In this document: in pieces, positions 39,082 to 60,932 of the stretch | Layout of the letters: each line of letters starts with the position of its first letter | Position numbering within the stretch: position 1 is the stretch's first letter | Source: an uncultured bacterium | Lineage (GTDB): Bacteria; Bacillota; Clostridia; Christensenellales; HGM11417 | Direction: 5' to 3' | Length of the DNA stretch: 64,000 nt | Assembly (NCBI GenBank): GCA_905215695.1 | Contig: CAJMQN010000002.1 | Coordinates: 134,610 to 198,609, forward strand | The notes under the pieces: generated by a model | What the model was told of the DNA's origin: nothing | The model's database searches: none | Seen by the model: the letters and a program-made list of their open reading frames with translations, nothing else | Position numbers and translations under genes: made by a program

Positions 39082-39129
39082 GTAACGCGTTACAGGAGAT
39101 ATTTTACCAAAAAAACCGAAGTTTAGCAA
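39082..39129 (-). promoter_or_regulatory. Candidate icd promoter plus perfect 12-bp palindrome in the leader
   Basis: The minus strand reads TTGCTA-17 nt-TAAAAT, with -35 at 39124-39129 and -10 at 39101-39106 (extended TGg). GTAACGCGTTAC follows at 39082-39093, between the -10 box and the RBS. Confidence 0.45.
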
Positions 39130-41399: not shown

Positions 41400-41412
41400 T
41401 CGGTCTCCAATG

Positions 41413-42627: not shown

Positions 42628-42637
42628 CGCTCTCTCC

Positions 42638-45091: not shown

Positions 45092-45093
45092 TT

Positions 45094-46965
45094 TCAGTCC
45101 GTCCATGTAAAGCCGCAAGGCGAAAGGATAAATTCCCCGCCCCCTCTTCGCGTCACCTTCTTCGGTTCCGTCGAGAGATTCACAAAACAATGATAGTTCT
45201 TCTTTCCGTCCGTGCGCCGATAGTAGCACACGCCCTCCCCGAATCCGAATTCGGGTTCTCCCGCATAGTGCGCGAGCATTGTCCTCTCGAACTTGGACTC
45301 CATTTTAAAGAGCGCAAACACGAATTTACCCTTGCCGCATGCAACTTCCTCAATGCCCGGAAATTCCTTTCCCTCGAACACGGCGGCGTGCCCGCAGAGC
45401 GCGGTCTCCTCGCCGAACGCGGAGACCTTTCCGCGCCCCTTGTACTGTGCAAACCAGCGAATCTTGGTTCCTGTAAGCCGCTCGAGGGCGCCGAGCGCGC
45501 AGTCCGTATAGAGGGTATGCTCTTCCGTCCGCCAGCCCGTATAGGGTCCGACCACCACCGTCGCGCCCTCGCTCGCCGCCGCGCAGAGCTTTCCGGCGAG
45601 CGCGTCGGAGACGTGCAGACAGTACGGAATATAGATGAGTTTGCGCCCCGAGAAATCGTCTTTTTCGGTGAGCGCGTCCCGGTACAGGCAGGTCGAGACC
45701 AGCGAGGCGTAGGACGCTCGCGTATCCGCAAGATAGTCGAACTCCTTGAGATTCTCCCCCTGCGAAAGCATGCGGGAAAAGTCCGAAAACACAAACGCCG
45801 TCTCCGCTTTCGCGGGTTTCGTAGCGAGCACAAACGCCTGTAGCTCCTCAATCGCCGCGGACACCTCCCGCACGTTCCCAAAGGCGGGCGTCTCTCCGCC
45901 GAAGACGGAAAGAATGTGTCCGTGCGGCATTTCGCTCCCCGAGCGGCTCTGCCGGAACTGCCAGTACAGAAATCCGTTCCCCCCTCCGAGAAAGGCGGAC
46001 GCCGCAAGCGCGCGGACGTATCCGTCATGGTGGAAGGGCAAGACTTCCACAATGTTTCCCCCGCTCGTGGGCGGAGTTTCCATGACGAAATAGGGCAGCT
46101 TGCAGGTATTGCGGAATCGGTCGAAGTTTAAAAGGCTCTCCGGGAACGCGTCATAGGTCGAATACTCGTCGATGCCCACGAAATCGAGGTTTCGGAAGGC
46201 GCGGTCAAAGTCGAGCTCGAACGTGCGGCACACGTTGGTGCAGACGGGCGCGTCCGAATACCGACGTATGATTTCCGCCTGCTCGTCCAGAAATTCCCCC
46301 ACGCTCTCCCGGTTAAAAGCACGGTATGCCGCGAGTTGAGAGGTCGAATGCAGATAGGGCGTGGGCACGGGCGGGAGTACGGAGACAAAATCCGGGTATT
46401 CAAAACTCCACACCCGATTGCCCCAAGCCTCGTTGAGCGCCTCGATACTCCCGTACCGTGCGGCAAGATACTCCGACCATTTTGCGCGGCATGTCGGGCA
46501 AAAACACTCGTGTACCGGGCAGTTGGGTTCGTTGTGCACCTGCCAGGCAATGAGCGCGGGGTGCCTGCCGTACCGCTCGGCGAGCCGCCGGACAATCTCC
46601 GCCGCGGCGCGGCGGAAATCGGAATTGTTCACGCACACATGTTCCCGGGAACCGTGGTCGAGTTTTTTCAGGTTTTCGTCCACATACAGACTATCGGGGT
46701 ATTTCAGGGTAAACCAACGCGGAGGCGTCGCCGTGGGCGTGCCCAGAATCACCGAAATGCCCGCCTCATAAAATCTCTCTATCGCCGCATCGAAGAGAGA
46801 AAAGTCGTATTTTCCCTCCTCCGGTTCCAGAACGGACCAGGCAAATTCCGCCATGCGCACGGTGTTCAGCCCCAATTCTTTCATGACGGCGATGTCCCGG
46901 TCGAGGTCGCCTGCCCCCCATTGCTCGGGATAGTACGCGCTTCCGTGCCAAAGTTTTTGTTTCAT
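45094..46965 (-). CDS. Beta-galactosidase (GH42), cytoplasmic, 623 aa
   Basis: MKQKLWHGSAYYPEQWGAGDLDRDIAVMKELGLNTVRMAEFAWSVLEPEEGKYDF, WQVHNEP and Cys cluster CPVHECFCPTC. ATGA overlap with the upstream stop. Confidence 0.88.
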   Translation of the reverse strand: MKQKLWHGSAYYPEQWGAGDLDRDIAVMKELGLNTVRMAEFAWSVLEPEEGKYDFSLFDAAIERFYEAGISVILGTPTATPPRWFTLKYPDSLYVDENLKKLDHGSREHVCVNNSDFRRAAAEIVRRLAERYGRHPALIAWQVHNEPNCPVHECFCPTCRAKWSEYLAARYGSIEALNEAWGNRVWSFEYPDFVSVLPPVPTPYLHSTSQLAAYRAFNRESVGEFLDEQAEIIRRYSDAPVCTNVCRTFELDFDRAFRNLDFVGIDEYSTYDAFPESLLNFDRFRNTCKLPYFVMETPPTSGGNIVEVLPFHHDGYVRALAASAFLGGGNGFLYWQFRQSRSGSEMPHGHILSVFGGETPAFGNVREVSAAIEELQAFVLATKPAKAETAFVFSDFSRMLSQGENLKEFDYLADTRASYASLVSTCLYRDALTEKDDFSGRKLIYIPYCLHVSDALAGKLCAAASEGATVVVGPYTGWRTEEHTLYTDCALGALERLTGTKIRWFAQYKGRGKVSAFGEETALCGHAAVFEGKEFPGIEEVACGKGKFVFALFKMESKFERTMLAHYAGEPEFGFGEGVCYYRRTDGKKNYHCFVNLSTEPKKVTRRGGGEFILSPCGFTWTD

Positions 46966-48257
46966 TCTACAAGAAACACGGGCGAACCCATGCGGAAATT
47001 CATATCGACAGTGAAGTTCGCGCACTCGAAGGCGAACGCCGTCGTCCCCTCGGGCAAATCGATTTCCACCCGACCCGAAACCTCCAGAGACATGCTCTCA
47101 AACCGCCAGGAATGGCTGTCCGACCCGCTGTCCGTCGTATAGAGGAAATTGATTTGTTCCACGTAATCGGGATTTTCAATCTCTATGTAAGCCTTTCCCT
47201 CCCGCACGCCGCTGTCGGTGACGAGAATCGCGGTGTCTTTTCCCCGCAAAACGTGTTCCATGAAAGCGTACACCTCATAGGTTTGGTTCCAATAATAGCC
47301 GTGCTGAAGGTCGGAACGCTGAGAGGCAAACACCTTGCCGGGCACAAGCGCAATGGACTTTGCGCGGCTGACGACGTCGAAACAGTTGTCGTCGATGCCG
47401 GATACGAAGAGCATCGGCTTTGTCGCATAGGGCAGATACGCGCTCGGGTCGTAGGCGGAAATCCAGGCTTCCCGTCCCGCGCTCCCTTCGCTTCCGCCGA
47501 AGATACCGCCCGCCCCAAAGCTGTCCTCATAGAGGTAACCCGCGCCGTAAATGGGCGCAAACGCCGCAAAACGCTTATCCACACCCGAGGCAATGCAGGT
47601 CAGCACGCCGCCCCAGGAAATTCCGGTACAGCCGATTTGGTTGGGGTTGACGTCCTCCCGCGCGCGCAGAATGTCGTTCGCGAGAATGATGTCCGCCACG
47701 CAGTGGTACACCCAGGAATCCTCCCACTCCTCCGCAGTCTGATTCTTGGAACCCGAGTACCCCTCCGTGGGTCCGCCCTCGGGATTGGTCTTCTTGTTCA
47801 GGGACGCGTCCAACTCGTTGCCGAAAATATCAATCGCAATGGCGACGTATCCTTTCTCGTTCCAGAGTTTGACCCATTCGGGATAGACCTGCCCCGCGCC
47901 GCCGTGCACAAGGACGATTCCCGGATACCCGCCCTCGGGCATGGGAAATTCCGTCTCGTCCGGCACCCCGACCACCGCGAAGGTGCGTTTATGGTCAAGG
48001 TCCTTCAAGGGATAGGCGACGGACTCAAATTTGATTGCCGTCATATTCTTGCCCGGATTGACCTCCGATAGCGTCTCGATTTCGGGCTCCGCCGCAAACA
48101 GCGTCTCCGTATCCCACATAAGATCCTCCCGCACAATGTCCTCTATCGCATAGGGTCCCTCCGCGGGATTGTAGGGCGTATTGGGTTCTCCGCCCCCGCA
48201 CGCCGCGGAAAACAACAGAATCGCACCCACAGCACAGGCGACAGCGCACTTTTTCAT
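46962..48257 (-). CDS. Alpha/beta-hydrolase esterase lipoprotein (acetyl-xylan-esterase/dienelactone-hydrolase-like)
   Basis: Lipobox MKKCAVACAVGAILLFSAAC. GIVLVHGGAG and nucleophile elbow GISWGG. Confidence 0.7.
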   Translation of the reverse strand: MKKCAVACAVGAILLFSAACGGGEPNTPYNPAEGPYAIEDIVREDLMWDTETLFAAEPEIETLSEVNPGKNMTAIKFESVAYPLKDLDHKRTFAVVGVPDETEFPMPEGGYPGIVLVHGGAGQVYPEWVKLWNEKGYVAIAIDIFGNELDASLNKKTNPEGGPTEGYSGSKNQTAEEWEDSWVYHCVADIILANDILRAREDVNPNQIGCTGISWGGVLTCIASGVDKRFAAFAPIYGAGYLYEDSFGAGGIFGGSEGSAGREAWISAYDPSAYLPYATKPMLFVSGIDDNCFDVVSRAKSIALVPGKVFASQRSDLQHGYYWNQTYEVYAFMEHVLRGKDTAILVTDSGVREGKAYIEIENPDYVEQINFLYTTDSGSDSHSWRFESMSLEVSGRVEIDLPEGTTAFAFECANFTVDMNFRMGSPVFLVE

Positions 48258-49349
48258 CAGCTCGTCTCTCCTTCCAGATATTTGGCGGCAAAAATAATAT
48301 TTTTTACAAAGTCCCGCTTCTCCGACGCCATCTGCTCGAAGAGCATTTCGACGGACTTCAACCCGAGTTCGTACTTGGGAATCTCCATGACCGAAAGCTT
48401 CTTATCCAAAAACGGATATTCCTGTTCCGGTCCGTAACCGATGACGGCGACGTCCTCCCGCAGACGTTTGCCCGCGTTCCCGATGAGGTCGAATATGGGG
48501 GCGGATTGCGTTGCCGTTGAAGAAGATAAACCCCACCTTCTCCCCGGAATCCCGCAAGAATGTTTCCGCCTCCGCCGTCCAGCCCTCCCGATCGATGTCG
48601 ATGACGACAGGCTTTCGGGTGGGATAGTAACGCGCCATCGCGATATAATACGCCCGCAGGCGGTTGGAAAACGCGAGTTCTCCCTCCGAGGATTCATAGA
48701 AGATAACGCAGTTTTTGCAGTCCTTTCGGTGACACTCCTCGATCATGGAATATACCGTGATAGAATCGTCCACAAGCACCGAGGGCGCAAGCATGCCGTG
48801 CGGCGGCTTTCCGATGACGACAATGGGAATATTTCGGTGCGAAACCGCAGAATAGAAGTCCACCCGCCGCTCGTCCTTGACCCGCACGGGCAGAATGAGC
48901 ATGCCGTCGATGTCCTTGCGCTTTAAAATATTTCGAATACATTCCCGCTCTTCGTCAAGGGTTCGGTTATACATGACGACGAGTTCCCAGCGGTTCTTGC
49001 GGATATTCTCCGAGACCCCCTCGTAGATAGGGGTATAGAACCCCTCCTTACCCGAAATGACCAACGCAATCTTACGCGCGGTCACATCCTTGAGTTTCTC
49101 CTCCCTCCGCCCTGCGAGAGCCTCCAGCACATTGTCCGCAACATAGGTCCCCTTGCCGCGGACTGTGCGGGCATAACCGTTGTTGACGAGATAGGAATAC
49201 GCCTTGCGCACCGTTCCCCGCGAAACGTCGAAACGGCGCATACATTCGGCTTCGCTTGGCAGAAGCTCCCCGCCTTTGAGTTCGTTGGACTCCATCTGTT
49301 GTAAAAACCAGGCAGTGATCTGCTCATAGACCAGCAAGACGTGTTCCAT
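48257..49349 (-). pseudogene. GntR-type HTH + LacI/PBP1-type sugar-binding regulator, split by a +1 frameshift in a G5/C5 tract
   Basis: The N-terminal frame (MEHVLLVYEQITAWFLQQ...GELLPSEAECMRRFDVSRGTVRKAYSYLVNNGYARTVRGKGTYV...GFIFFNGNA) runs into the C5 run at 48497-48501. The homologous sequence then continues in another frame (PIFDLIGNAGKRLREDVAVIGYG...AAKYLEGETS). The span is 1093 nt, which is 364 codons plus 1 nt. Only the downstream frame gives the ATGA coupling to the next gene. Confidence 0.8.
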
Positions 49350-49357
49350 TCGTTCTC

Positions 49358-50632
49358 CTAAATTTCTAACGGTTTTGTTCCGCCGAAAATTTCTTGCAGA
49401 ACTACCGCTTTCTGTTTGGGCGCAAACGCTCCGCCTTCCTCTTCCGGCTCCGTAAAGAGTCCGAAACTCCGTTCCGCGCCGCTCCCCCATTGGGAAGCGT
49501 ACGCACAGTCATACAGTCGGAAATAGCAGACAGTCTCCACCTGCGGCATCGCGGCGCAGCGCTCGTACAGTTCCGCGATCCAAATCTCCTGCTTTGTCAT
49601 CTCCTCGGGGTCGCCGTAATCCGGCCAGCCCATTTCGGTCAACAGCACTTTGCGCGCCACCGTATCGTACTTGTCGATGACCTCGAATACGCGCTCGTTG
49701 CCCTCGACCCAACCGCTCCAGTCCCGGTACTCATAGGGATGGTAGCCGATACATTGAAAGTAGTCCTCAATTTCGGTGCTTTTGGTTTCGCCGTAGGGAA
49801 ATTCTCCGCTTGCGATATTCTTATAAATCTGTTCCAAAAAGAGCGGAATGCTATAGCCGACGTCGGTGAGCGAATCTGCGTATTCGGTCATGGTTCCGAG
49901 CGAAGTCCAGCCGGGCGTGACCGTATAGGCGTTCGGATTTCCCGCGCGGATTCCCTTGGAGGCGTAGTACATGAGGTCGGTGTTGACTGCCGCCTGCTCC
50001 TCGAAGGAAAACCGCCCCGAGACCGGGCTCATATAGGAATAGCAATTCGTCTCGTTGCCCATCTCCCAGTAGGTGATTTCCGGGAAGGACGCGGCGAGCG
50101 TCTTCCAAAGCTCCGATAGGAGCGCACACCAGTCCGCGTAGCACTCCTCCTCCCGCGACGGCACGGTCAGGCTCAGATACCCGCCCGCAAAGCCTTGCGG
50201 CTTGGGATAGATCGCCGCTTCTCCGATGATGTGTTTGACGCCGGCATCCGAGAGAAGAGCAAGGCACTCTTTTAAGTATGCCTCGATTTCAGAATCCAAT
50301 TCGATTTCAAAATCGTTTTCGCCGTACATGGCGTACTTTTTAAAGATTTTTTGGGGAAACATAAAACGCACCGACGTCGTGCCGAGCGCCTCAAGGTGCC
50401 CCGTCATCACTTCTTTATCGAATCCCTTGACCTGAAACTCTTCCGAGTTCTCCTTCTTTTCCCAAAACGGCTCCGCTATCCCATACAGACGGGATTTATC
50501 CACGGTCAAATGGTCGTTTTCCGCATAATAGGGCGGGGATTCTTCGCCCGGATTCGTTCCGGGGTCCTCTCCGCCCGTACAGCCGAGCGCAAGGAGCAGG
50601 AAGGAGAGAAACAGACACGCAAATTTCTTCAT
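49358..50632 (-). CDS. TIM-barrel (clan GH-A-like) glycoside hydrolase lipoprotein, paralog A
   Basis: Lipobox MKKFACLFLSFLLLALGC. Candidate acid/base is ITYWEMGNE and candidate nucleophile is LLTEMGW. Confidence 0.6.
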   Translation of the reverse strand: MKKFACLFLSFLLLALGCTGGEDPGTNPGEESPPYYAENDHLTVDKSRLYGIAEPFWEKKENSEEFQVKGFDKEVMTGHLEALGTTSVRFMFPQKIFKKYAMYGENDFEIELDSEIEAYLKECLALLSDAGVKHIIGEAAIYPKPQGFAGGYLSLTVPSREEECYADWCALLSELWKTLAASFPEITYWEMGNETNCYSYMSPVSGRFSFEEQAAVNTDLMYYASKGIRAGNPNAYTVTPGWTSLGTMTEYADSLTDVGYSIPLFLEQIYKNIASGEFPYGETKSTEIEDYFQCIGYHPYEYRDWSGWVEGNERVFEVIDKYDTVARKVLLTEMGWPDYGDPEEMTKQEIWIAELYERCAAMPQVETVCYFRLYDCAYASQWGSGAERSFGLFTEPEEEGGAFAPKQKAVVLQEIFGGTKPLEI

Positions 50633-51921
50633 CTGTCCTCCGCAAGTTTTTCGTTCAGTTTCTCGAGGTCAGACCACATTTCGAGGTCTCCCGTACCGCC
50701 GAAGATTTCCTGCATCACAACCGCCTTCTGTTTGGGCATGAATCCTTGCGTTTTCGTCGGCTCATAAAAGACTCCGTAGGTCTTTTCGGGCGAATTCGCG
50801 CCGAGACCCGCCCAGTCGTACTCGCAGTTGTAGAGCCGGAACCAAAGACAACTCTCTACGTACCGCATTTCTTCCATGCAATACCGATAGACGAGCTTTG
50901 CCGCCTCGCTTTGAGAGGCGATGAGGTCGGGAGAATTGGAGTCGAACCAACCCATTTCCGTGAAAATGACAGGCTTTCCGTCATCTCCGTTGTCAATCGC
51001 GAGCTGATAGATGTCGCCATTGTACCCAATCCAATCTTCGTCCATGGGCATACCGTCATAGGGGTGCCAGGAGAAACCGCCGAAATAGTCGTCAGAATCC
51101 GTGCTCTTCTCCCCGATCCGCGGAAACTCCCCGCTGTTGATATTGTCATAGACGTAGCCGAGAAAATACTCGATTTCCCGGGACGCCATGTTTCCGAGAG
51201 AAGTCCAGCCCGGTGTGAGCGTGACCGCTTCGGAATTTGCGGCAAGAATTCCGCGATTTGCGAAGTACATATAGTCGGTATTCGCCGCGGCGGACTCATC
51301 GATGGCAAATCCGCCCTGTTTGGTGTCCGGGTTGTAGGTCGCCGGGTGGAAGAAGGTGTCCGCGTTGTACTCGTTGCCCATCTCCCAATAGGTGATTTCG
51401 TCAAACTCTCCGACGAGCACAGTCCAGGCTTGCGAGACCGCCTCCGCCCAGGTTTCATAGCAGGAATCCACTCCATAGACGGGCACGCCCAGCGAACCCG
51501 CGGGCACGCTCTGCCCCGCGTCCGTCACGAAGGGCGGCAGAACGATTCCCTCTCCCACGATGAAACCGATTCCCGCGTCGTGGAGTTTCTGGATAGATTC
51601 GTGAAAATAAGGGACCATTTCCTCGTCCAGTTCGATCTCTATGGTGCCGTCGTCATAGTCCACAATGAATTTTGAGAAGATGCTCGCCGGAAACATCATG
51701 CGGAAGGAGTTGCACCCCATCGCGCCCATGAGATAGACGGTGACGTCGCGGTTGAATCCGATGACCTGATCTTCGTTTGAGTTCGCGCGCTTTTCCCAAA
51801 GCGGCTCGAAAAAGCCGTACATGTGCGTTTTGTCCGCAGTCGGCGGGGTCTCTTCTCCGCCGCAGGCAGTGCATCCGAGAATGCACAGGACGGAGAGAAA
51901 GAGACAGAACAGTTTTTTCAT
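50629..51921 (-). CDS. TIM-barrel (clan GH-A-like) glycoside hydrolase lipoprotein, paralog B
   Basis: Lipobox MKKLFCLFLSVLCILGC. ITYWEMGNE and VIFTEMGW. Collinear similarity to paralog A along its full length. ATGA overlap with paralog A. Confidence 0.6.
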   Translation of the reverse strand: MKKLFCLFLSVLCILGCTACGGEETPPTADKTHMYGFFEPLWEKRANSNEDQVIGFNRDVTVYLMGAMGCNSFRMMFPASIFSKFIVDYDDGTIEIELDEEMVPYFHESIQKLHDAGIGFIVGEGIVLPPFVTDAGQSVPAGSLGVPVYGVDSCYETWAEAVSQAWTVLVGEFDEITYWEMGNEYNADTFFHPATYNPDTKQGGFAIDESAAANTDYMYFANRGILAANSEAVTLTPGWTSLGNMASREIEYFLGYVYDNINSGEFPRIGEKSTDSDDYFGGFSWHPYDGMPMDEDWIGYNGDIYQLAIDNGDDGKPVIFTEMGWFDSNSPDLIASQSEAAKLVYRYCMEEMRYVESCLWFRLYNCEYDWAGLGANSPEKTYGVFYEPTKTQGFMPKQKAVVMQEIFGGTGDLEMWSDLEKLNEKLAEDR

Positions 51922-51930
51922 GATTCCTCC

Positions 51931-52809
51931 TTAACCTTTGAGCCCGCCTGCGACGGTATTCGCGATAATCGTCTTTTGGAAGACCGCGAAGATGACGATG
52001 ACGGGGACCGAAGAGAGCACCATCGCCGAAAAGACGACAGGCCAGTTGGAGCCTCGGGAGCTCATCTCCTGCTGTAACTGATAGATTCCGACCGCAAGCG
52101 TCGGGAATTCGCGCAGATACATGTAGGGCGTAAAGTAATCGTTCCAGAACCCGATAAAGCTGATGATTCCCACCGCGAACAGCGAAGGCTTCGCCTGCGG
52201 GAGCATAATCCGTACGAAAATCTGAAAGTTTCCCGCGCCGTCAATTTGCGCCGCCTCCGCATAGGTCCAGGATAGACTTTTAAAGAACCCGTACAGCAGA
52301 AAGAAGTTAAATCCGAACCCGCCCGAATACATGAGAACAATGCCGAGATGGTTGTTCGCAAGTCCGCTCTCGAACATAAATTTGTACTGCGCCGCAAGGG
52401 AGCCGGATGTCGGAATCAGCATAATCGTGATAGCGAGTCCGTAGATAAAATTCCTGCCCTTAAAATCGAATTTGGAAACCACGTAGGCGGACATCGCGCA
52501 GGCGATTGTCGAACCCGCCGTGCCCCCGACGGCAAGGATGAATGAGTTTAAAAACATCGAGAAGAGGTTGTACTCGCTGAACGCTTTTGCGTAATTGTCC
52601 AGCGTCCATTTCCCGAAGTTAAACCAGTCCATTGGGTATTTTGCAAAGTCGAGCCTCGTGCGGAAGGAATTGATTGCCGCCCACAGCAGAGGGAAGACGA
52701 GAGAGATGCCGTAGAGGATAAAGACAATCAGGACAATGATCATCGTGACCTTGGGCAGAGAACATTTGTCCTCGCTCGCCTTCCGCGCTCTTTGTGCGTG
52801 AAATGCCAT
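51931..52809 (-). CDS. Carbohydrate ABC transporter permease (MalG/LplC-like)
   Basis: Six TM segments and EAA loop EAAQIDGAGNFQIFVRIMLPQAKP. The start ATG shares one nt with the upstream stop (TAATG). Confidence 0.88.
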   Translation of the reverse strand: MAFHAQRARKASEDKCSLPKVTMIIVLIVFILYGISLVFPLLWAAINSFRTRLDFAKYPMDWFNFGKWTLDNYAKAFSEYNLFSMFLNSFILAVGGTAGSTIACAMSAYVVSKFDFKGRNFIYGLAITIMLIPTSGSLAAQYKFMFESGLANNHLGIVLMYSGGFGFNFFLLYGFFKSLSWTYAEAAQIDGAGNFQIFVRIMLPQAKPSLFAVGIISFIGFWNDYFTPYMYLREFPTLAVGIYQLQQEMSSRGSNWPVVFSAMVLSSVPVIVIFAVFQKTIIANTVAGGLKG

Positions 52810-55800
52810 TATTTGATCCTTTTTCTCGTATAGAAGAGTCCGAATGCGGCAAGTGCAATCACCGCAAGTCCGCCGCCCAGCATTCCGCCGATGCCGCCCG
52901 TCGAGCCGCAGCCTCCGCAGCCGCCCTTTTCGGGTTCTTCGGGTTTGTTGGGATCATCGGGCTCCTCGGGCTCTTCGGGGTCCGGCGGAACAACGTCGTC
53001 GGGAATTTCCGAATAGTCCGAGAGGTTGACGAACACAAAGCGGTCCAGCGCAATTCCGCCAGAAACCGTCGCGACACCCACCCGTCCGGGTACGGCGCAA
53101 TCCACGTCGAATTCCGCAACAGGTTCATTGAGTACGTCATAGGGAAGGTCTCCGTACATGAGCGCGATTTGGAGCTTTCCGCCCATCACCGTCGTCTGTA
53201 CGACAAAGGAGCCCTCTCCGATCGCCGCAAAGACATCAACGCCGAGTTCAATGGTACGTTCCTCTGCACCGTCTTTGACTGTCGCCTTCGTGGAACCCTT
53301 CGTAAATGTCACCGTGCAGGCATCCGCAAGCGTATCCTCGGAATCCAGCCGTCCGAAGTACAGCGAAATATCCGTACACGTTTCGGAAATTGAGGTAATC
53401 CGCACCATCTGCGCGTAGTTGCGCGCCCAGCCTGCGGTTCCGAACATTCCGTTCGCACCGAGCGTAAGTTTTCCGTCCGCAACGGTGCCCGCAACGCTCT
53501 CGAATTTGTCCGAGCCGTCGAATGCCGCCGAAGCGTCAGCCATCTGCGGAAGATCGATGACGCGGAAGGTCTTTTGCGCGGTCGCGGTCAAGTCGTGTGT
53601 GTTCTTGACCGAAAATTTCACCGTATAGAAACCCGTCGCAGTCGGTGTAAAGGTCAGTCCCTCGGAGTGAAGAGGCGTACCCGTCGCCTCCTTTCCCGCG
53701 AAGACCTCCATTGTAATCGTGAGCGAGTCCGCGTCGTCGAGCGGGTCATCCGCTTCGGGCGCAAACGTAATCGGATTCAGACCGTTGTACCAGTCTTTCG
53801 TGTCCCCGACGGTGAGCGTGGGCGCGCCGTAAATAACTTCGAAGTCGAAGGGCACGTTTGCGGTCTGTCCCGCGGGATTGGAAACGGTAAAGAGGAAATG
53901 ATAGTTTCCGATTTCCGTCGGTTTAAATTCCGCAATATTCGGTACCGCATAGGGCTCCCCGTCCTTGGTCACGGTATAGTTGAAAGTTTTCACGATTTCC
54001 GCAACGCTGAAACTCGGGTCGGAGAGTGTAGGCATGAGATTGAAGGTCTCCCCGAGACTCCCCTGTGTCATTTCAGGCACCGTCACCGTGGGCGCCGCAG
54101 CGGGATTGGATTTCAACGAGAGGTAGTTAAGTCTCGCGGAAATTGTCTCCCCCTCTCCGAAGAACCCAACAAAGCCGTCGGTATTCTCGAGCGTAAAGAT
54201 TTCGGTTTTTCCTCCGACCGATACCTCGAGCGCACCCGTGGCGCCGATGAGCCGGAAGGTTACGAGCGTGGGATTGGTCAAATCAAGCCCCGCGATTGCA
54301 CGCTCGTCGGGTTCTTCCTCGCCCTTGCGCAGTCCGAGAACCGCGCCGTTCGTGTCCCGTTTCAAATAGAGATAGCTGCTGTTCTCGCCGAAAGCATAGT
54401 TCGTACCAAGCCCGAACGCCGCGCCGAACGAGCCGGAGTTCAGCTTGAAATTGAACGCGCCGCTCACGACGTCCGTGTCGAGGTTTTCGAGCTTTGTTTT
54501 GACGCCGAGCGTCCCTTCGCCGGAGAACGAAACCTCCGAAACCGCCGGAAGGGTCAGGGTCGTCGAGGAAGAAGCGGTCCAGAGCGCAAGCCCGTTGCCG
54601 TTGATATTGTTGTAGGAGAAATCATCCGAGAGCAGGACTCCCTCCGCCGAAGTGGAGACCTGTGCCGAATGTAGCGTTGTTCCTCCGCCCCAAGTATTAT
54701 GAGGAACTGAAATAAAGAATCGTCCGCCGTCACGCACCATATCCGCAAACAATCCCGTTTCGGTAAAGAGGACGTAATCTTTTTCGGTACTGAGTCCGCT
54801 CTCTCCGCCCATCGTTATTTGCTCAAGGATTCGCAGGGAAAGCGTTGCGGAACCGTCCGCGGAAACGTCCAGAATAAACTTCACTTTTCCGTCGAAGATA
54901 CGCAAATTTCCGGACGCGTAAAATTTAGACTCGTCTTCCTTCAGAATTTCGTCCCATCTGCCGTCAACCTTCACATTGCTTCCCGCGTTGCCGTCCTTTG
55001 TCACGCTGTAGCCGTTGAAGTTCAGGGAAATATAGTCCGTAGGCGCGGTCTCGTTCGCTCCGACAAATCCCACTGCGGTCGTCGGTCCTCTCGAAGTCAC
55101 GACATACTCGACATGCGTCGCGCCTTTGAAGGACTGTGTGCTGACAAGCATATTGTTTCCATTCACCGACGTACCGCCGCTCGCGACCCCCTTGTCGTTG
55201 GGCAAGGATTCAACAAAGGAAACCGCGCCTGCGCTCGGCTTTGAAGCAGTTCCCTCGGCGACAGCAGTGTCAAAGGCGTCGTTTGTAACCCAGTTGGTAT
55301 CAAAAGTGGAAGGGGTTGCAAAGTTTTCAGTATAGTTTTCAAAGACCGAAATCGGGGGTTGCGATGAAATGCTCGCACGGAGCAATTTAAAATTGCTTGA
55401 CGCAAAGAAGGGATAACCGACTTCTTTCAATGCACTTGGATTATCCACATTGGCAAAGGACAAAAACGGATAGCTTGTATCAATGTTTTTATACATTTCG
55501 AGCCAACTGTCGCGTTCGAACTTACTGTCCATTACCGTATTAGAGGCAGGAATTTTTACGGAAAGCGTCACGTTACCGTAGGCGGAAATCTCAAGTTTCA
55601 GCGAAACTTCCCCCTTCAAAGGCGCAATGTCCGTTGTTGCGTCATGATTCCAAGCTCCTTTTACCATGGAGGTCGGCTTTTGTGCACTGCCGTCATTATA
55701 ATAGAAGATATAGTTAGATGCTGCATCCGCAATTTCCGACTTGACATTTTTGCGGCTCAATCCTATTTTGAATTGATAGGTTTCCTGTACAAATTCCACG

Positions 55801-56063
55801 TCAAAAGTGAGAGTGGACTGCAAACCTGTTTCTCCACCGACAGGTTTATTTAAGAGGAACAGTGCGTCTGTGACAGAGGATGCGTCAGCATAAGCCTGTA
55901 CCGGCGTCGTGCTCTCCACCTCGGAGGCGTGGAACCCGCCTCCCGCAACATAGGTTTTGGCGGAGCTGCCCGTCCCGGTCTCCGCAAACGCCGCCCCGGC
56001 AAAACCGCAGAGGCTGATTACCATGACACAAAGAATGGCGAAAATCGCTCTTTTTCTTTTCAT
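52809..56063 (-). CDS. Large secreted, C-terminally anchored multi-module protein (lectin/LamG-like beta-sandwich and Ig-like modules), 1084 aa
   Basis: Signal peptide MKRKRAIFAILCVMVISLCGFAGAAFA. Recurrent beta-sandwich signatures (GFVGFFGEGETISARLNYLSLKS; GRVGVATVSGGIALDRFVFVNLSD). Two Ig-like repeats (EFKPTEIGNYHFLFTVSN / TFTPTATGFYTVKFSVKN). No catalytic motif recognised. Confidence 0.6.
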   Translation of the reverse strand: MKRKRAIFAILCVMVISLCGFAGAAFAETGTGSSAKTYVAGGGFHASEVESTTPVQAYADASSVTDALFLLNKPVGGETGLQSTLTFDVEFVQETYQFKIGLSRKNVKSEIADAASNYIFYYNDGSAQKPTSMVKGAWNHDATTDIAPLKGEVSLKLEISAYGNVTLSVKIPASNTVMDSKFERDSWLEMYKNIDTSYPFLSFANVDNPSALKEVGYPFFASSNFKLLRASISSQPPISVFENYTENFATPSTFDTNWVTNDAFDTAVAEGTASKPSAGAVSFVESLPNDKGVASGGTSVNGNNMLVSTQSFKGATHVEYVVTSRGPTTAVGFVGANETAPTDYISLNFNGYSVTKDGNAGSNVKVDGRWDEILKEDESKFYASGNLRIFDGKVKFILDVSADGSATLSLRILEQITMGGESGLSTEKDYVLFTETGLFADMVRDGGRFFISVPHNTWGGGTTLHSAQVSTSAEGVLLSDDFSYNNINGNGLALWTASSSTTLTLPAVSEVSFSGEGTLGVKTKLENLDTDVVSGAFNFKLNSGSFGAAFGLGTNYAFGENSSYLYLKRDTNGAVLGLRKGEEEPDERAIAGLDLTNPTLVTFRLIGATGALEVSVGGKTEIFTLENTDGFVGFFGEGETISARLNYLSLKSNPAAAPTVTVPEMTQGSLGETFNLMPTLSDPSFSVAEIVKTFNYTVTKDGEPYAVPNIAEFKPTEIGNYHFLFTVSNPAGQTANVPFDFEVIYGAPTLTVGDTKDWYNGLNPITFAPEADDPLDDADSLTITMEVFAGKEATGTPLHSEGLTFTPTATGFYTVKFSVKNTHDLTATAQKTFRVIDLPQMADASAAFDGSDKFESVAGTVADGKLTLGANGMFGTAGWARNYAQMVRITSISETCTDISLYFGRLDSEDTLADACTVTFTKGSTKATVKDGAEERTIELGVDVFAAIGEGSFVVQTTVMGGKLQIALMYGDLPYDVLNEPVAEFDVDCAVPGRVGVATVSGGIALDRFVFVNLSDYSEIPDDVVPPDPEEPEEPDDPNKPEEPEKGGCGGCGSTGGIGGMLGGGLAVIALAAFGLFYTRKRIK
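52812..52988 (-). other. C-terminal tripartite tail of the 1084-aa protein: KPEEPEK-G-GCGGCG, Gly-rich spacer, TM helix, RKRIK
   Basis: PPDPEEPEEPDDPNKPEEPEKGGCGGCGSTGGIGGMLGGGLAVIALAAFGLFYTRKRIK. Confidence 0.6.
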
Positions 56064-56075
56064 CTTTTCTCTCCC

Positions 56076-58085
56076 TTAAGCGTAATTTTCGAAAGACAGC
56101 GGCGTGATACTTAAGTTGTCGATGTCAAAAGTGCTGTTGTATCCGCAGCTGATTCCCACGTAGCCGTAGGTGTTCACATTTGTGAAAACGGCTTTGGGTT
56201 GGTCGAGATAGCTTGCGTCTTGATTCGAATATTTATAGTAAATCGAAATCGTGCGGTTCTTGACGATGACGACGACGTTGACTTTCAAACCGTCGGTTCC
56301 GGTCACAACCTTGCCGTCGCTTCCGTCATGCCACCAGCACTCCGAGGGCCACTCCGCCTCTCCTCCGCTTGCGGTCGTCGCGCCGTATCCCCATATAATC
56401 ATGCTCGGTGTAATCTTCCCTTCCGTATTCTTGTTCCAATATTTGGTGCAGAACTGTACCGAAGGATGTGTTCCGCCGATACTGCTCTCGTCATAATTCT
56501 GTTTTCCGACCGAAATACCGATGCTCATGTCCGCGTAATAGCCGGGTGTGGCATACAGCCCGTCCTCGTCCCGGTAAAAACTTCCCACAATGCGCGTCAC
56601 GTCAAAGCGCAGAATAAAGTCCTGATATTTTTCCTTTGTATTGAAGGAAGTATTGACATCGCCGGAAGAGAATTTTAAAACCCCGTTCCGAACGCTACAG
56701 TTGCCTTCGGCGACCCACTTTTTGGAATCCACGTAGCCCGCCGTCGTCGAACCGTTTTTCATCGCGTCGAAATTGTTTCCGATTGCGCCCGCCGTCGGTC
56801 TTTGGAAGGTATAGAGCGTCAGTTCCGCCGAATACAGGAACGCGCTCACCGAACCGGTCGCAGTCTCCTCCAATTTTTCGGCGGCGAATCCGAGATAGCC
56901 GGACAGAGCCGCATTTCGCGCCGTTCCCGCGAGAACGCCGTCCACATAGACCTGCAAATCGCTGTTATACCTGCCGATGAGCCGCACGACCGCGCCGTCA
57001 GAAACGGAAAGCCCTTCCTTCACGATCGCCGCGTCCTCTCCCTCGCGCGCAATCACGAGGTCAAATCCCTCTTCCGCAGGGGTAAACGCGAGAAAATCTC
57101 CGCCCGCGCCGCTGCCGTCCATGCCGGTGCGCACTCCGAATCCATAGCCCTCGGGAATATTCGAAAGCCCGACGCCGAAGGAGAAATCAAAGAGATTGAG
57201 ACTACCCTGTCCCTCCTGCACCTCAAACTTCGCCGCCATGACCGCAGAGGAAATCTCCGCAAACTTTGCGGCATATCCCATACCCGAAGAATACTGTTCA
57301 TTCTGCGCGATCCAGGGCAGAATGCGCTCATCGGTCATGCCGATCAGTTCCTCTGTGGGTTTTTCGAACTTTTCGGTCGCAACGACTTTGTCCGCCGCCG
57401 TATCTCGAATGGAAAGATTCATAAACTTGACCGTCGAACCGTCGCCGTTCGCCTGAATGCAGAGATGACCTGCCACGCCAAACACCGAGAGATCGCAGAC
57501 CTTTTCGAGCGTTTCGCCTGCGTAAATCGCGCCCTTATATTCCTCGTTCTCATAGGTCACGGAAATCTTGAAGGGCATCGCGACTCCATTCGAAACAAGT
57601 CCCGGGACGTTTCCCGTCTCGCCGTCGATGATCTGACCGAGGCGGTAGTTGTTGACCCAACCCTTTTGTCCGTTGGCGCTGATGATGATTCCGCTTTGGC
57701 TGCGCTTTGCATAAGTCGAACCGACTTCTTCGCCGCCGAGAATGATGCCGCACCACGCCTCGCCCGAGGTCTTCATCGAAACCTCGAAGCTGATATCATA
57801 GCTCTTTCCCGCCTCGAATGTAAAACCGTTGTGATAAATGGAATGACTATAGCCCTGCACGGGTTTCATTACCAGCGCGCCCGAAGTTTCAACAGCATTC
57901 ACCTTCTGCGCGTCCGCGCCTGCGAGCAGCCACTTTGACGAATCGATGGTGCTTCCGCTGAAGTCGTCGGCGAGCGCAACCGTCGCCACACTGCCGGCAT
58001 TCGCCGCGCCGAGGGGCAGCGCGCAAGCCGCGATGAGCAGGGCAAGCCCGACAGCCGTCGCAATCCTTGCAAATTTTCTCTTCAT
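56076..58085 (-). CDS. Secreted (possibly lipoprotein) protein built of concanavalin-A-like/LamG (DUF1080-type) modules, 669 aa
   Basis: The start is ATG 58085, with GGAGAGGAAGG upstream. Signal peptide MKRKFARIATAVGLALLIAACALPLGAANA (IAAC lipobox-like). Module signatures are DDFSGSTIDSSKWLL...STVKFMNLSIRD and VRNGVLKFSS...YVGISCGYNSTFDIDNLSITPL. Confidence 0.55.
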   Translation of the reverse strand: MKRKFARIATAVGLALLIAACALPLGAANAGSVATVALADDFSGSTIDSSKWLLAGADAQKVNAVETSGALVMKPVQGYSHSIYHNGFTFEAGKSYDISFEVSMKTSGEAWCGIILGGEEVGSTYAKRSQSGIIISANGQKGWVNNYRLGQIIDGETGNVPGLVSNGVAMPFKISVTYENEEYKGAIYAGETLEKVCDLSVFGVAGHLCIQANGDGSTVKFMNLSIRDTAADKVVATEKFEKPTEELIGMTDERILPWIAQNEQYSSGMGYAAKFAEISSAVMAAKFEVQEGQGSLNLFDFSFGVGLSNIPEGYGFGVRTGMDGSGAGGDFLAFTPAEEGFDLVIAREGEDAAIVKEGLSVSDGAVVRLIGRYNSDLQVYVDGVLAGTARNAALSGYLGFAAEKLEETATGSVSAFLYSAELTLYTFQRPTAGAIGNNFDAMKNGSTTAGYVDSKKWVAEGNCSVRNGVLKFSSGDVNTSFNTKEKYQDFILRFDVTRIVGSFYRDEDGLYATPGYYADMSIGISVGKQNYDESSIGGTHPSVQFCTKYWNKNTEGKITPSMIIWGYGATTASGGEAEWPSECWWHDGSDGKVVTGTDGLKVNVVVIVKNRTISIYYKYSNQDASYLDQPKAVFTNVNTYGYVGISCGYNSTFDIDNLSITPLSFENYA

Positions 58086-58110
58086 ACCTTCCTCTCCTTC
58101 CTTTTTTATT

Positions 58111-59043
58111 TTAAAATTCAATATCCGGTGTGACCTTTCCCATCAGCCATTTGACGAAGAACACGAAGGGAATGCCGACCACCGAGAACATGAGCCCGAG
58201 AGCGGCGGCTTTTTCTCCCTCCTCCTGATTCACAAGCTGATAGATGTACAGTGCGACCGTCGAAGTCTTTCCGTTTGCGCCCCCGCTGTCCGAGATGATA
58301 AGCATGGGCGGCAAAAACCAGCCGAAGATTGCCAAAGAATTTAAGATAAACAGCGTGGACATGGTCGGCCATACAAGGGGCAGAACAATCTGAAACATCT
58401 CCCTCACGGTCGTCACGCCGTCCAGCCTGCTGTACTCGAGAATCTCCTGCGGAATGCGGGAAATGCCTCCGTTTAGCAGCACCACATTGTACCCGAGTCC
58501 GGACCACACCGCGAAGAAAAACACAGTCGGCATCGCCCAGCTCCCGTTGCTGTCCAAAAAGAATGGCGTCTTTTCCCCGAAAATGAGCTCGCAGAGCTTG
58601 TAAAAAAGACCGTAATCGGAGTTAAACATGGAGCGGTACGCGAGTGCGAGCACGGTAATCGAGATGATCGAGGGCAGAAAGAACACCACCCGGAAGAGGT
58701 TCGCGCAGGGAATCTTCTTGAACAGAAAGAACGCGCAGACAAAGGACAGCGGCAGAATGATAAAGTTATTGACCGGGAAGATCCACAGCGAGTTGAGCAT
58801 AGAGTTGAAGGTGCGTTCGTTGTGTCCGAGGAACATGTCCCCGAAGAGTTCCCAGAAGTTATTGAGTCCGTACCAGACGTACTCCTGCGTGTTGGGGCTG
58901 TATCGAAAGAAAGTCATGAAGATGGTATTCGCGTTGATGTACAGCCAAAACACGAGGAAGTGCGCGATCGGGTATGCCAGCATGAGCCATACAAAGACCG
59001 TGGTCTTCCGCTTCCCCGAACGAAGCCGTTTTGTCTTTTCCAT
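58111..59043 (-). CDS. Carbohydrate ABC transporter permease (MalF/LplB-like), 310 aa
   Basis: EAA loop LEYSRLDGVTTVREMFQIVLP and six TM segments. The start ATG 59043 forms an ATGA overlap with the SBP stop. The track start 59067 is rejected. Confidence 0.88.
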   Translation of the reverse strand: MEKTKRLRSGKRKTTVFVWLMLAYPIAHFLVFWLYINANTIFMTFFRYSPNTQEYVWYGLNNFWELFGDMFLGHNERTFNSMLNSLWIFPVNNFIILPLSFVCAFFLFKKIPCANLFRVVFFLPSIISITVLALAYRSMFNSDYGLFYKLCELIFGEKTPFFLDSNGSWAMPTVFFFAVWSGLGYNVVLLNGGISRIPQEILEYSRLDGVTTVREMFQIVLPLVWPTMSTLFILNSLAIFGWFLPPMLIISDSGGANGKTSTVALYIYQLVNQEEGEKAAALGLMFSVVGIPFVFFVKWLMGKVTPDIEF

Positions 59044-60653
59044 CAGACCTCGGCGAGCTCCTTCCACTTATCGAAGTTATCCATCGCATTGTTATAGACG
59101 GTTGTCACGAGCTCGTTTGCGGTCTTTCCGTAGAGTTGAAGAAGGATATCCGCCTCGTTGTTCTCCGCCCATTCCTTGATGCCCGCGTACATAAAGATGT
59201 TGCTTGTTGAGCTACGCACAATCTGCAGAGCGTCCGGGTTCTCATAGACCGAGAAAACGCTCTTCGTGAAGTCCGTGAGTCCCTCCGCCTCGCTCGGGCT
59301 GTAGTCAAAGGGACGTGCGATAGACATGGATTCGGTCGCCTTCATGACGTTTTCCTGTTTGTTGAGGTAGATAAGGAACTTTTTGGCGTTCTCCTTGTGT
59401 ACCGCATTCTCGGGGATAAACATGAGGTCGCCGATCTCGGTATTGTTGACGACGGCGTATTCGGGAGACTGCGTTGACGCGGTCTCAAACCCTCCGTCCT
59501 TCAAGAGTCCGCCGTGAATCTCTTTGGATTCGAGTCCGAGCTTGGACGCAACCGAGGAGACATAGGCATAATCGACCGCCGGCACGGGCATCATTGCGTA
59601 GTGGAAATTCTCGTCGATCAGTTCGTCGATTTCGTTCTGAATCCAGGAACCATTGGGCATCATCGCCGCTTCCCCGAACGCGAACTTTTCCTGTGCCTCA
59701 TAGACGGTCTTTGAGACCGGGTCCTTGATGCTGTTCGTCCAAGTGCTGTTCGCCTCATCGACGATGAGGTCGCGAAGAACCTGAAGCGCAATCTTGCGCC
59801 CCGCCTGATTAAAGGATTCGTATCCGCTGTCCGGATTTCCGGCGTTGTCCACAAAGTTGTAAAAATCCTTCAGGTCGCCGTATTTTGCCACGCCGTCCTC
59901 GAAAGATTCGTCATAGCCTTGATAGGAGCACCACAGACTCATAAAGAGGAAGTTCCAATACCCCATATTCGTGCCGTCGCCGCCCCAGGCAAAAGCGGTC
60001 TTTCCCGCAGCTTTCAGGTCCGCGACGAGCTCGAGAAGCTCGGTGACGGTCTTGGGCGTATAGCCGTCCGCCCACTTGCCGCCGAGACTCTTGAGCATAT
60101 CCACGTTATAGACGATTCCGGTGAGCGGCGAAGTCCAGGGCACCACCCAATAGTGCTTATCGGCACTGCTCGGGGTCTGTCCCATGTATCCGAACTGCGC
60201 GGCTTCGTCGATCAGCTTATCGGAAAGCGTTTTGTCGTCTTCATCCTCATAGACATACGAATAGACGTCGTCGATTTCGGAGATATAGCCCTTGTTGACG
60301 TAGCCCTGCCACTTGAGGGTCTGCGTCATCACGACGTCGGGAAGTTTATTGAGAATGGTCGCGCTCGGCTTTCCATTCGAGGGATGCGCATTCTTCAAGA
60401 GCGTGGGAATCTCGCTCGTGACGCTGTTGTCAGACTCGAGATAGACGCCGATGCCCGTCTCTTGCACGAAATTGTGCGTAATCTCGTACAGCCATTCGGC
60501 GCCGTTGCCTCCCTCGAAATAGCGGACATACAGATCGCCCTCGTCCCGCTCGAAGAGGTAATCGTAGTCGGAATTTGTCTTTCCCCGGCCGCAGCCGGCA
60601 AAACCGAACACGAGAACAAGCGCAAGTACTGCCGTCAACACACGTTTCATCAT
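59043..60653 (-). CDS. Large extracellular solute-binding lipoprotein of a CUT1-type sugar ABC transporter (LplA-like), 536 aa
   Basis: Lipobox MMKRVLTAVLALVLVFGFAGC. AAGGAG RBS 8 nt upstream. The size and composition are typical of polysaccharide-oligomer SBPs. Confidence 0.85.
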   Translation of the reverse strand: MMKRVLTAVLALVLVFGFAGCGRGKTNSDYDYLFERDEGDLYVRYFEGGNGAEWLYEITHNFVQETGIGVYLESDNSVTSEIPTLLKNAHPSNGKPSATILNKLPDVVMTQTLKWQGYVNKGYISEIDDVYSYVYEDEDDKTLSDKLIDEAAQFGYMGQTPSSADKHYWVVPWTSPLTGIVYNVDMLKSLGGKWADGYTPKTVTELLELVADLKAAGKTAFAWGGDGTNMGYWNFLFMSLWCSYQGYDESFEDGVAKYGDLKDFYNFVDNAGNPDSGYESFNQAGRKIALQVLRDLIVDEANSTWTNSIKDPVSKTVYEAQEKFAFGEAAMMPNGSWIQNEIDELIDENFHYAMMPVPAVDYAYVSSVASKLGLESKEIHGGLLKDGGFETASTQSPEYAVVNNTEIGDLMFIPENAVHKENAKKFLIYLNKQENVMKATESMSIARPFDYSPSEAEGLTDFTKSVFSVYENPDALQIVRSSTSNIFMYAGIKEWAENNEADILLQLYGKTANELVTTVYNNAMDNFDKWKELAEV

Positions 60654-60691: not shown

Positions 60692-60813
60692 AGACTCGAG
60701 TGGCCGCTCAAAGCGCGTCCACTCTCCTCTCAAGAAAGGATACCTTCGGTGAACTTTTCCTTCGAGACTCGAATGTCCGCGCAAAGCGCGTCCGCTCTCC
60801 TCTCAGGAAAAGT
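60692..60813 (-). repeat. Two imperfect 49-bp direct repeats (73-bp period) in the promoter/leader region of the glycan operon
   Basis: R1 (60692-60740) is agactcgagtggccgctcaaagcgcgtccactctcctctcaagaaagga. R2 (60765-60813) is agactcgaatgtccgcgcaaagcgcgtccgctctcctctcaggaaaagt. About 42 of 49 positions are identical. Each copy contains a short GC hairpin (cgcgc-aaa-gcgcg in R2). Confidence 0.7.
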
Positions 60814-60857
60814 ATATCATATTTCAAAAACCGCGCATAGACGCTCCGGCGGGCTGA

Positions 60858-60885
60858 CTTGTACATAAAAAGTACAAGTTGTACA
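60858..60885. promoter_or_regulatory. Inverted repeat with three TTGTACA/TGTACAA half-sites (candidate operator)
   Basis: cttgtac-ataaaaa-gtacaag is a perfect 7-bp inverted repeat. It is immediately followed by a third ttgtaca. Confidence 0.35.
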
Positions 60886-60913
60886 AAAAAAGAGACCCCG
60901 CGCAAACGGGGTC
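60885..60913 (-). terminator. Intrinsic terminator downstream of ddl
   Basis: Minus-strand gaccccg-tttgcg-cggggtc followed by tcttttttt. Confidence 0.7.
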
Positions 60914-60932
60914 CCCCCATAGGACTGATTGA

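Follow-up and report, generated by a model that had tools for sequence, protein, structure and literature searches.

Organization of the importer operon

The 64,000-nucleotide stretch of DNA analyzed here (referred to as the window) contains, on its minus strand, a sugar importer locus of the ATP-binding cassette (ABC) type in which the two permease genes are separated by the genes of two large extracellular proteins, termed X and Y. Both are probably dedicated helpers of the importer, with sugar binding as their presumed activity. The first gene of the block encodes a solute-binding lipoprotein (SBP; 59043-60653; 536 amino acids (aa)) with the lipobox FAGC, which matches Pfam SBP_bac_1 (PF01547; E 3.5e-18) and whose closest families in an NCBIfam comparison are carbohydrate SBPs. 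It is followed by a MalF/UgpA-like permease (perm1; 58111-59043; 310 aa), by X (56076-58085; 669 aa counted from the ATG), a secreted protein predicted to consist of three tandem beta-sandwich domains, by Y (52809-56063; 1084 aa), a type I membrane protein, and by a MalG/UgpE-like permease (perm2; 51931-52809; 292 aa). Both permeases match Pfam BPD_transp_1; the best PDB matches of perm1 are MalF, AlgM1, and SugA, and perm2 is nearest to MalG/UgpE in NCBIfam and PDB comparisons. The open reading frames (ORFs) and Pfam matches confirm the gene order given in the original prediction, which had been made from the letters of the window. With an SBP_bac_1-type SBP, one MalF/UgpA-like and one MalG/UgpE-like permease, the block has the composition of a carbohydrate uptake transporter-1 (CUT1) importer. 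The operon genes and the other large ORFs that were scanned include no MsmK/MalK-type ABC ATPase; CUT1 systems of Firmicutes commonly share one ATPase that is encoded elsewhere.

The genes are tightly packed. The SBP and perm1 genes meet in TGATG with a 1-nt overlap, and not in the ATGA overlap that had been proposed, while the other predicted junctions hold: perm1 and X are separated by 25 nt, including GGAAGGAGAGGAAGG, X and Y by 12 nt, and Y and perm2 overlap by 1 nt in TAATG. Below the terminator described next, and down to at least 39123, every large ORF has this orientation, and neighboring ORFs overlap or are only shortly spaced. The single convincing terminator near the block, at 60889-60918 (minus strand; 13-bp stem with 7 GC pairs, T-run), lies upstream of the SBP gene; it belongs to the preceding ddl/murF unit, whose ORFs encode Ddl and MurF, and marks the upstream edge of the operon. 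Consensus scans within the block returned promoter-like and terminator-like matches at chance level (9 versus 9.5 and 23 versus 22.6 expected, respectively), and the gaps between SBP and perm2 are too small for either signal. The genes from SBP to perm2 are presumably co-transcribed.

Downstream of perm2, on the same strand, lie two paralogous genes. The original prediction had omitted them, as well as the esterase lipoprotein gene and the X-Y fusions described below. GHa (50629-51921; 430 aa) and GHb (49358-50632; 424 aa) are lipoproteins with lipoboxes and are predicted to be TIM-barrel glycosidases resembling clan GH-A of the glycoside hydrolases (GH), with the motifs WEMGNExN and (F/L)TEMGW (WEMGNEYN and FTEMGW in GHa). 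Their profile weakly matches the nucleophile region of GH1 (E 8e-5), and a paralogue in the related locus L010 matches GH5 weakly. Neither protein belongs to a Pfam or NCBIfam family, and a PDB sequence search with GHa gave no match; the two may represent an unclassified glycoside hydrolase family. They are followed by a regulator gene (48260-49349), by the gene of an alpha/beta-hydrolase lipoprotein with the lipobox SAAC (46962-48257), an AXE1/DLH-like esterase according to Pfam, and by further enzyme genes (39123-47025) for a GH42 beta-galactosidase, a GH78 alpha-L-rhamnosidase, a GDSL esterase, and a GH78-like six-hairpin protein.

Conservation of the arrangement

A word-indexed search for X returned seven clusters only. 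In all contigs of these clusters, the genes are arranged as SBP-perm1-X-Y, followed by perm2 where the contig reaches that far; this module is kept in L001-L009. L006 is the Clostridia metagenome-assembled genome RGIG5244, the single genome matched in a scan of genome collections. Conserved synteny, which had been suggested as a check, was thus found in every relative of the window clade: the order is kept in 5 of 5 diverged relatives as far as their contigs extend, at X identities from 89 to 41%. Across the lineages, protein identity is 96, 86, 69, 63, and 60% for SBP and 99, 94, 78, 70, and 72% for perm1, compared to 89, 66, 51, 42, and 41% for X and 79, 57, 35, and about 30% for Y. Identity drops in parallel for all five genes, which indicates long-standing operon membership of X and Y across the whole clade, combined with faster evolution. 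Relative to L008, the closest separate lineage, dN/dS is 0.02 for perm1, 0.01 for perm2, 0.04 for SBP, 0.07 for GHa, and 0.05 for GHb, and amounts to 0.08 for X and 0.23 for Y. Because of these purifying values and of orthologues that can be traced down to about 23% identity, X and Y are taken to be real genes, as opposed to chance ORFs. A recent, strain-specific insertion with its own promoter and terminator, named in the original prediction as the finding that would speak against it, is excluded by the gaps of 25, 12, and -1 nt, the chance-level scan hits, and the conservation of the order in distant relatives.

A hidden Markov model (HMM) of X was also searched against 1.84 billion representatives (clusters at 50% identity). 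The X family comprises 122 representative clusters at E <=0.001, 83 of them at E <1e-10, from gut Clostridia of sheep, human, and other gut metagenomes. Gene contexts were read for 13 of about 120 clusters, five from the window clade and eight further ones; a metagenome scan with a narrower alignment yielded two loci, one of them useful (L010). The X-family gene directly follows a perm1 orthologue in 13 of 13 contexts; in the eight further ones, the identity of the permease is 32-49% (tblastn). The junction between the two is a 4-nt overlap in L010 and a gap of 12-30 nt elsewhere.

The position of perm2, on the other hand, varies. It follows X and Y in L013, L014, and L018. L013 (assembly GCA_026001225.1) repeats the window layout at about 24% X identity (esterases, SBP, perm1, X, a Y of 988 aa, perm2, GHa, GHb, and GntR); L014 carries SBP, perm1, X, a minimal Y, perm2, a GHa-like gene, and GntR two genes further; L018 carries SBP, an SBP-like gene, perm1, a fused X/Y protein of 791 aa, and perm2. 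In L010, L012, and L016, perm2 precedes SBP: the order is LacI, perm2, SBP, perm1, X, a Y of 996 aa, GHa, GHb, and GDSL in L010, and perm2, SBP, perm1, and a fused protein in L012 and L016, accompanied by GHa-like and GHb-like genes in the former and by one GHa-like (GH5-like) gene in the latter. The contigs of L015 (perm1, family gene) and L017 (SBP, perm1, family gene) end after the family gene. GHa/GHb-like genes adjoin the module in 6 of the 8 distant loci. The two permease genes, which are normally adjacent in polysaccharide utilization loci of Gram-positive bacteria (gpPULs), are non-adjacent in all contexts, being separated by X and Y in one layout and by SBP in the other. The split permease pair with coupled junctions, on which the original prediction was built, is real, but it is one of two layouts. 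The true invariant is a perm1 gene directly followed by an X-family gene, not an insertion between the permeases.

Domain architecture of X and Y

X has one N-terminal hydrophobic segment, a predicted signal peptide. Its AlphaFold2 model (mean predicted local distance difference test (pLDDT) score 67) consists of three beta-sandwiches. Domain 1 (57366-57983; about aa 35-240) is concanavalin A (ConA)/LamG-like, with pLDDT 75-93 in most 10-residue blocks; domain 2 (56811-57344; about aa 248-425) is LamG-like and mostly in the same range; domain 3 (56079-56732; about aa 452-669) is DUF1080-like and reaches about 50. The best Foldseek match is 4jqt (BT3469, a DUF1080 tandem protein; E 1.4e-10), followed by neurexin LNS, laminin LG, galectins, and the receptor-binding domains of clostridial neurotoxins; the probability is 1.00 for 4jqt, neurexin, laminin LG, and galectins. 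A PDB sequence search with X gave no match. X thus models as three tandem concanavalin/LamG-like sandwiches. Domain 2 is weakly homologous to residues 536-634 of Y (E 0.035 for the window Y, 1.9e-5 for a Y-like esterase-fusion protein of L001).

Y is built from a signal peptide, stacked beta modules, an acidic, proline-containing linker, the motif GCGGCGS, a transmembrane helix (residues 1058-1076), and the basic tail RKRIK. The signal peptides of both proteins and the membrane anchor of the larger one are hence in line with what had been predicted. The distal N-terminal domain (55293-55883; aa 61-257) differs strongly between close relatives. Compared to L008, it shows 32-42% identity with saturated dS, followed by a transition of 75% identity at aa 258-317; beyond about aa 318, identity is 85-98% in 60-codon windows, and the genes flanking Y are 93-99% identical. 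The domain looks like an allelic cassette exchanged by recombination. Such a swap is what would be expected of an exposed recognition tip, and it would fit either a change of ligand or pressure by phage or host on that tip.

The central beta-sandwich modules (54099-55223; aa 281-655) are absent from short Y orthologues in the alignment. Two Ig-like modules follow (53544-54098; aa 656-840). All Y orthologues retain the second of them, and the aligned region contains the invariant pattern ITF.P...G...GL.F.P...G.Y. The Ig-like assignment is supported by a weak PKD_4 match in the L013 Y and by clear Big_9 and cadherin matches in the fused protein P0124. The membrane-proximal beta-sandwich (53004-53543; aa 841-1020) is homologous to the fourth domain of fused family members, and sequence profiles link this C-terminal domain to the DUF1080-like third domain type. 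The minimal Y of L014 (371 aa) consists of an Ig-like module, a sandwich, the linker, the Gly-Cys motif, and the transmembrane helix.

The C-terminal segment (52812-53003; aa 1021-1084) comprises the Pro/Glu-rich linker, the Cys motif, the anchor, and the basic tail. A Gly-Cys motif (GCGGCGS, GC[GSK]GS) is found right before the transmembrane helix in all Y orthologues, including those of L001, L003, L006, and L014 (52812-52940 in the window), and 26 of 41 fused forms have a Cys just before the helix. Against the MYXO-CTERM model (cut-off 20), the tail of the window Y reaches 20.6 bits; other tails of the family stay below the cut-off. The Gly-Cys tail may represent a Cys-dependent sorting or lipidation signal in Clostridia. 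Anchoring of Y by a sortase is excluded, as there is no LPXTG motif and the LPXTG_anchor model score is under its cut-off; a function as signaling sensor is likewise excluded, given that the cytoplasmic tail consists of only a few basic residues.

Natural fusions of X and Y

Of 120 family representatives, 38 are short forms of 600-720 aa, and 42 are long forms of 851-1000 aa. The long forms, 41 of 120 at 855-990 aa, consist of X-like domains plus one extra domain. A transmembrane helix with a basic tail ends 40 of 41 long forms, compared to 1 of 36 short forms, and a profile of the Y C-terminus aligns with the final 270 residues of these long proteins (hhalign probability 99.0, E 8e-18, 208 columns). 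Many relatives thus carry X and the membrane-proximal part of Y as one chain. Where X is separate, it has no conserved anchor: the Cys of a possible lipobox (IAAC) in the window X is absent in the orthologues P0006 and P0007. Taken together with the fusions, this makes an X that is held on Y the simplest reading, which would imply contact between the two proteins. The fusions are the strongest clue to X and Y acting together. In one further protein, P0097 (1327 aa), a GHa-like lipoprotein-like sequence directly follows the transmembrane anchor of the fused protein within one called ORF.

A second type of fusion was found in L001 and L006. The best match of Y residues 63-691 in these loci is not the local Y, but the N-terminal part of secreted proteins of 1282-1288 aa (L001 3127-6993; L006 3254-7102), whose C-terminal third is an orthologue of the window lipoprotein esterase (AXE1/DLH-type). 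In the window, the esterase is a separate lipoprotein; domains of the anchor protein and of an enzyme have thus been shuffled in these forms. In the relatives, Y-type modules are thus used as attachments, as carbohydrate-binding modules (CBMs) are; the attachment of a discrete module to a carbohydrate-active enzyme, one hallmark of CBMs, applies to these relatives and not to Y itself.

A proposed role in glycan capture

In the reading that we favor, to which we give a probability of about 0.5, X and Y would have no catalytic function; as lectin-like proteins of the cell surface, they would serve a distinct Clostridial subfamily of CUT1 importers as its extracellular accessory arm. Y would be fixed in the membrane by its C-terminal helix, while the Pro/Glu-rich linker and the stack of beta-sandwich and Ig-like modules would project through the wall; X, which has no anchor of its own, would be carried on Y. 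Together, they would capture a plant-type, acetylated polysaccharide containing rhamnose and/or galactose and present it to the membrane-tethered GHa, GHb, and lipoprotein esterase. The oligosaccharides freed in this way would be bound by the SBP lipoprotein and imported through perm1 and perm2 with the help of an ATPase encoded elsewhere, and GH42, GH78, and esterases would complete their breakdown inside the cell. Glycan binding, contact between X and Y, hand-over to the SBP, and the substrate are the parts of this scheme that we infer.

The type of substrate is deduced from the neighboring enzyme families. The window has GH42, GH78, and esterases, L010 has GH36, L016 has GH28, GH78-like, GH1, and SASA, and L014 has GH43 and GH106-like. 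The enzyme set varies by locus. The families point to acetylated plant glycans with rhamnose and/or galactose, of the pectin or arabinogalactan type, as candidate substrates.

Several observations weigh against this proposal. Glycan binding by X and Y is itself a prediction, and no known CBM family matched either protein in Pfam/NCBIfam-type profile comparisons. Of the concanavalin/LamG and Ig-like modules that had been predicted for both proteins, the former are borne out by the model and Foldseek matches of X; for Y, the fold evidence is weak. The Y model is unusable (pLDDT 42.6) because the alignment is shallow; a profile of Y orthologues used in the word-indexed search returned only the same five close proteins, and the Foldseek matches of this low-confidence model to neurexin and galectins are at most consistent with a lectin-like fold. 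Domain 3 of X, the most conserved part, is poorly modeled, and its polar residues that are invariant in the narrow clade could equally mark a catalytic site or a surface for contact with another protein. Beta-jelly-roll folds occur in enzymes as well, such as GH16, PL7, and the DUF1080 3-ketoglycoside hydrolases. The evidence for contact between X and Y, or with the permease, consists of gene fusion and adjacency, and the context sample is small, with 13 contexts for about 120 clusters.

A different, unlikely reading takes X and Y as a structural extracytoplasmic subunit of the transporter. Bound to the MalF-like permease or to the SBP, this subunit might keep the SBP near the channel or hold a path open through the wall, and glycan binding of its own would be dispensable. 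This reading would agree with the position of the family gene right after perm1 whichever side perm2 occupies, with the coupled or overlapping junctions, and with permeases that are never adjacent in this importer subfamily. The conservation pattern, too, would suit a docking function, since the membrane-proximal domain and X domain 3 are most conserved while the distal parts vary. However, perm1 aligns with MalF, AlgM1, and SugA without a large insertion that could serve as an extra extracellular docking site, adjacency is evidence of co-expression and not of contact, and the fold class is typical of carbohydrate recognition.

We consider it rather improbable that X, Y, or both are extracellular enzymes of an undescribed beta-jelly-roll family (a GH, a lyase, or of DUF1080 type) that produce the oligosaccharides for the SBP. 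Residues 441-497 of X reach the model of the 3-keto-disaccharide hydrolase family PF06439 with 27.1 bits at a cut-off of 26.8, over 57 residues only and not across the domain, and the 371-aa Y of L014 matches the same family weakly. In some bacteria, DUF1080 proteins act as 3-ketoglycoside hydrolases of the periplasm (PMC9007349), and 4jqt, to which the X model is structurally closest, carries the label 'putative glycosyl hydrolase'. Furthermore, domain 3 is the most conserved part of X in the narrow clade, with many invariant polar residues, for example in ECWWHDGSDG, an invariant C-terminal tail, and a very low dN/dS of 0.01-0.08. Because of this invariance and the PF06439 match, an enzymatic or protein-docking role for domain 3 is possible.

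The wider family argues in the other direction. Pfam coverage is poor, with PF06439 matching 1 of 47 members at E <=0.01. In an alignment of 98 members, the columns conserved at >=70% are nearly all G, F, W, or Y, the polar ones being only D40, D489, D495, K528, and K618; no conserved acidic pair or histidine was found across these members, and the GH16-type pattern ExDxxE is absent from X and Y and occurs in 1 of the 98. The statement that neither protein has a recognizable catalytic motif is therefore upheld by the family alignment and the pattern search. No glycoside 3-dehydrogenase was seen in the scanned 23-kb block (39123-62060), the operon already contains two secreted clan GH-A-like glycosidases and an esterase, and Y-type modules sit on an esterase in relatives like accessory modules. 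The conserved columns, the esterase fusions, and the operon's own extracellular hydrolases favor non-catalytic X and Y.

That X and Y are general adhesins for plant particles, host mucus, or other cells, or a surface coat, variable antigen, or phage target that shares the operon through co-regulation only, would suit the exchanged distal domain, the long stalk and anchor of Y, and LamG, galectin, and toxin-receptor-binding folds, which are common in adhesins, but is highly doubtful, as a fixed place after perm1 and near GHa-like genes would then be unexpected at about 23% identity and across two layouts.

Beyond the capture of glycans proposed above, a more far-reaching scheme can be drawn, which we put forward as speculative and unlikely. 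X and Y, or the fused form, might count as an additional importer subunit and thereby define a new class of ABC glycan importers in Gram-positive bacteria. Their lectin stalk would span the wall, dock on the MalF-like permease, assemble the SBP and the GH-A-like lipoproteins round the channel, and hand the cut oligosaccharides directly to it. Such an importer would be the monoderm counterpart of the SusCDEFG 'utilisome' of Bacteroides, and the Cys-containing C-terminal signal would represent a new sorting or lipidation route in Clostridia.

Leader, regulator, and other features of the window

Between the upstream terminator and the SBP gene lies the palindrome ACTTGTAC-N6-TGTACAAGT (60857-60879, minus strand), a putative operator. 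Its half-site TGTACAAG is conserved in 3 of 3 leaders (window, L007, and L005); the partner half-site CTTGTAC is intact in the window and L005 leaders and degenerate in that of L007. This TGTACA-type palindrome is likely the operator of the operon's own GntR-type regulator. The leader further contains an insert at 60692-60810 (minus strand) with two 46-nt direct repeats (60692-60737 and 60765-60810) of 89% identity at a distance of 73 nt. A GC-rich hairpin lies inside each repeat, and the whole stretch amounts to about 130 nt. Neither the L007 nor the L005 leader contains the insert, which was seen only in the window lineage. The region including the leader has no Rfam match. The insert could represent a short repeat element that entered the leader, or a leader RNA specific to this lineage.

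The regulator gene of the window encodes a GntR helix-turn-helix domain (Pfam GntR) and a sugar-binding domain, and is apparently frameshifted. The orthologue in L008 is intact, with 363 aa and a Peripla_BP_3 domain, and the window sequence matches it in two frames, residues 1-308 in one and 262-363 in the other. The pattern points to a frameshift, possibly accompanied by a short duplication; the gene may be a pseudogene, in which case the operon would be de-repressed, or the assembly may contain an error.

Two further ORFs of the minus strand deserve mention. The one at 35309-37642 (777 aa) has no Pfam match; it lies just downstream of an isocitrate/isopropylmalate dehydrogenase gene, which separates it from the glycan-utilization block. 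The other, at 18-7184 (2388 aa), combines a subtilase S8 domain with PA and Fn3-like domains and eight leucine-rich-repeat regions of the BspA type; its product is a giant protease or adhesin of the cell surface and is unrelated to the X/Y operon.

Significance and comparison with known systems

How Gram-positive gut bacteria capture polysaccharides before ABC import is far less understood than the Sus system of Bacteroides. A recent review that covers glycoside transporters names no accessory protein in connection with ABC importers (PMC13543919), and a limited literature search found no earlier description of a dedicated non-enzymatic protein pair right after a MalF-like gene. The locus defines an unannotated protein family that has no usable Pfam or NCBIfam model and is tied by position to one sugar importer subfamily. 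A MalF-like gene directly followed by an X-family gene can serve as a genomic marker for such loci, the natural fusions supply a hypothesis for contact between X and Y, and the family provides a concrete set of proteins for the study of glycan capture. Should X and Y only bind glycans, they would be a variation on a strategy already known; their assembly with the transporter would change the accepted list of ABC importer subunits.

Among known proteins, those with DUF1080 (PF06439), such as 4jqt (BT3469), share tandem ConA-like beta-sandwiches with X, and there are the marginal matches of X domain 3 and of the L014 Y. They differ in that the X family fails the Pfam model, and the characterized enzymes work together with a periplasmic glycoside 3-dehydrogenase. 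The P2 loop of MalF in the maltose transporter of E. coli is an extracytoplasmic, beta-rich element that belongs to the MalF-type permease and touches the binding protein, and X is encoded right after the MalF-like gene. In contrast to P2, which is a loop inside MalF, X and Y are separate proteins, and perm1 is free of such an insertion; contact of X and Y with the SBP, by analogy with P2, is a speculation.

The closest functional analogues seem to be the surface glycan-binding proteins (SGBPs) of the SusE/SusF type in Bacteroidota. As is proposed for X and Y, they are non-catalytic, membrane-tethered proteins of tandem beta-sandwiches that are encoded in a transporter locus beside surface enzymes, diverge rapidly, and are thought to catch polysaccharide for the transporter. 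X and Y are nevertheless no members of this group: SGBPs are outer-membrane lipoproteins of diderms and work with the TonB-dependent transporter SusC/SusD, whereas the locus described here belongs to a Clostridia-type host and has, in place of SusC/SusD, an ABC importer and a C-terminal transmembrane anchor, with no sequence relationship to SGBPs. Binding has been demonstrated for SusE and SusF, while X and Y are known from their sequences.

With regard to gene content, the locus resembles the gpPULs of Roseburia, Eubacterium rectale, and Blautia, in which a regulator, an SBP, two permeases, extracellular enzymes, and cytoplasmic glycosidases are likewise combined in one locus of gut Firmicutes, and CBM-bearing, wall-anchored enzymes are found next to CUT1 ABC importers (PMC5320581, PMC6385246, PMC10318527). 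There, glycans are captured by the CBMs on the enzymes themselves. Overall, the locus is a CUT1-type importer locus of the gpPUL kind with a position-fixed accessory.

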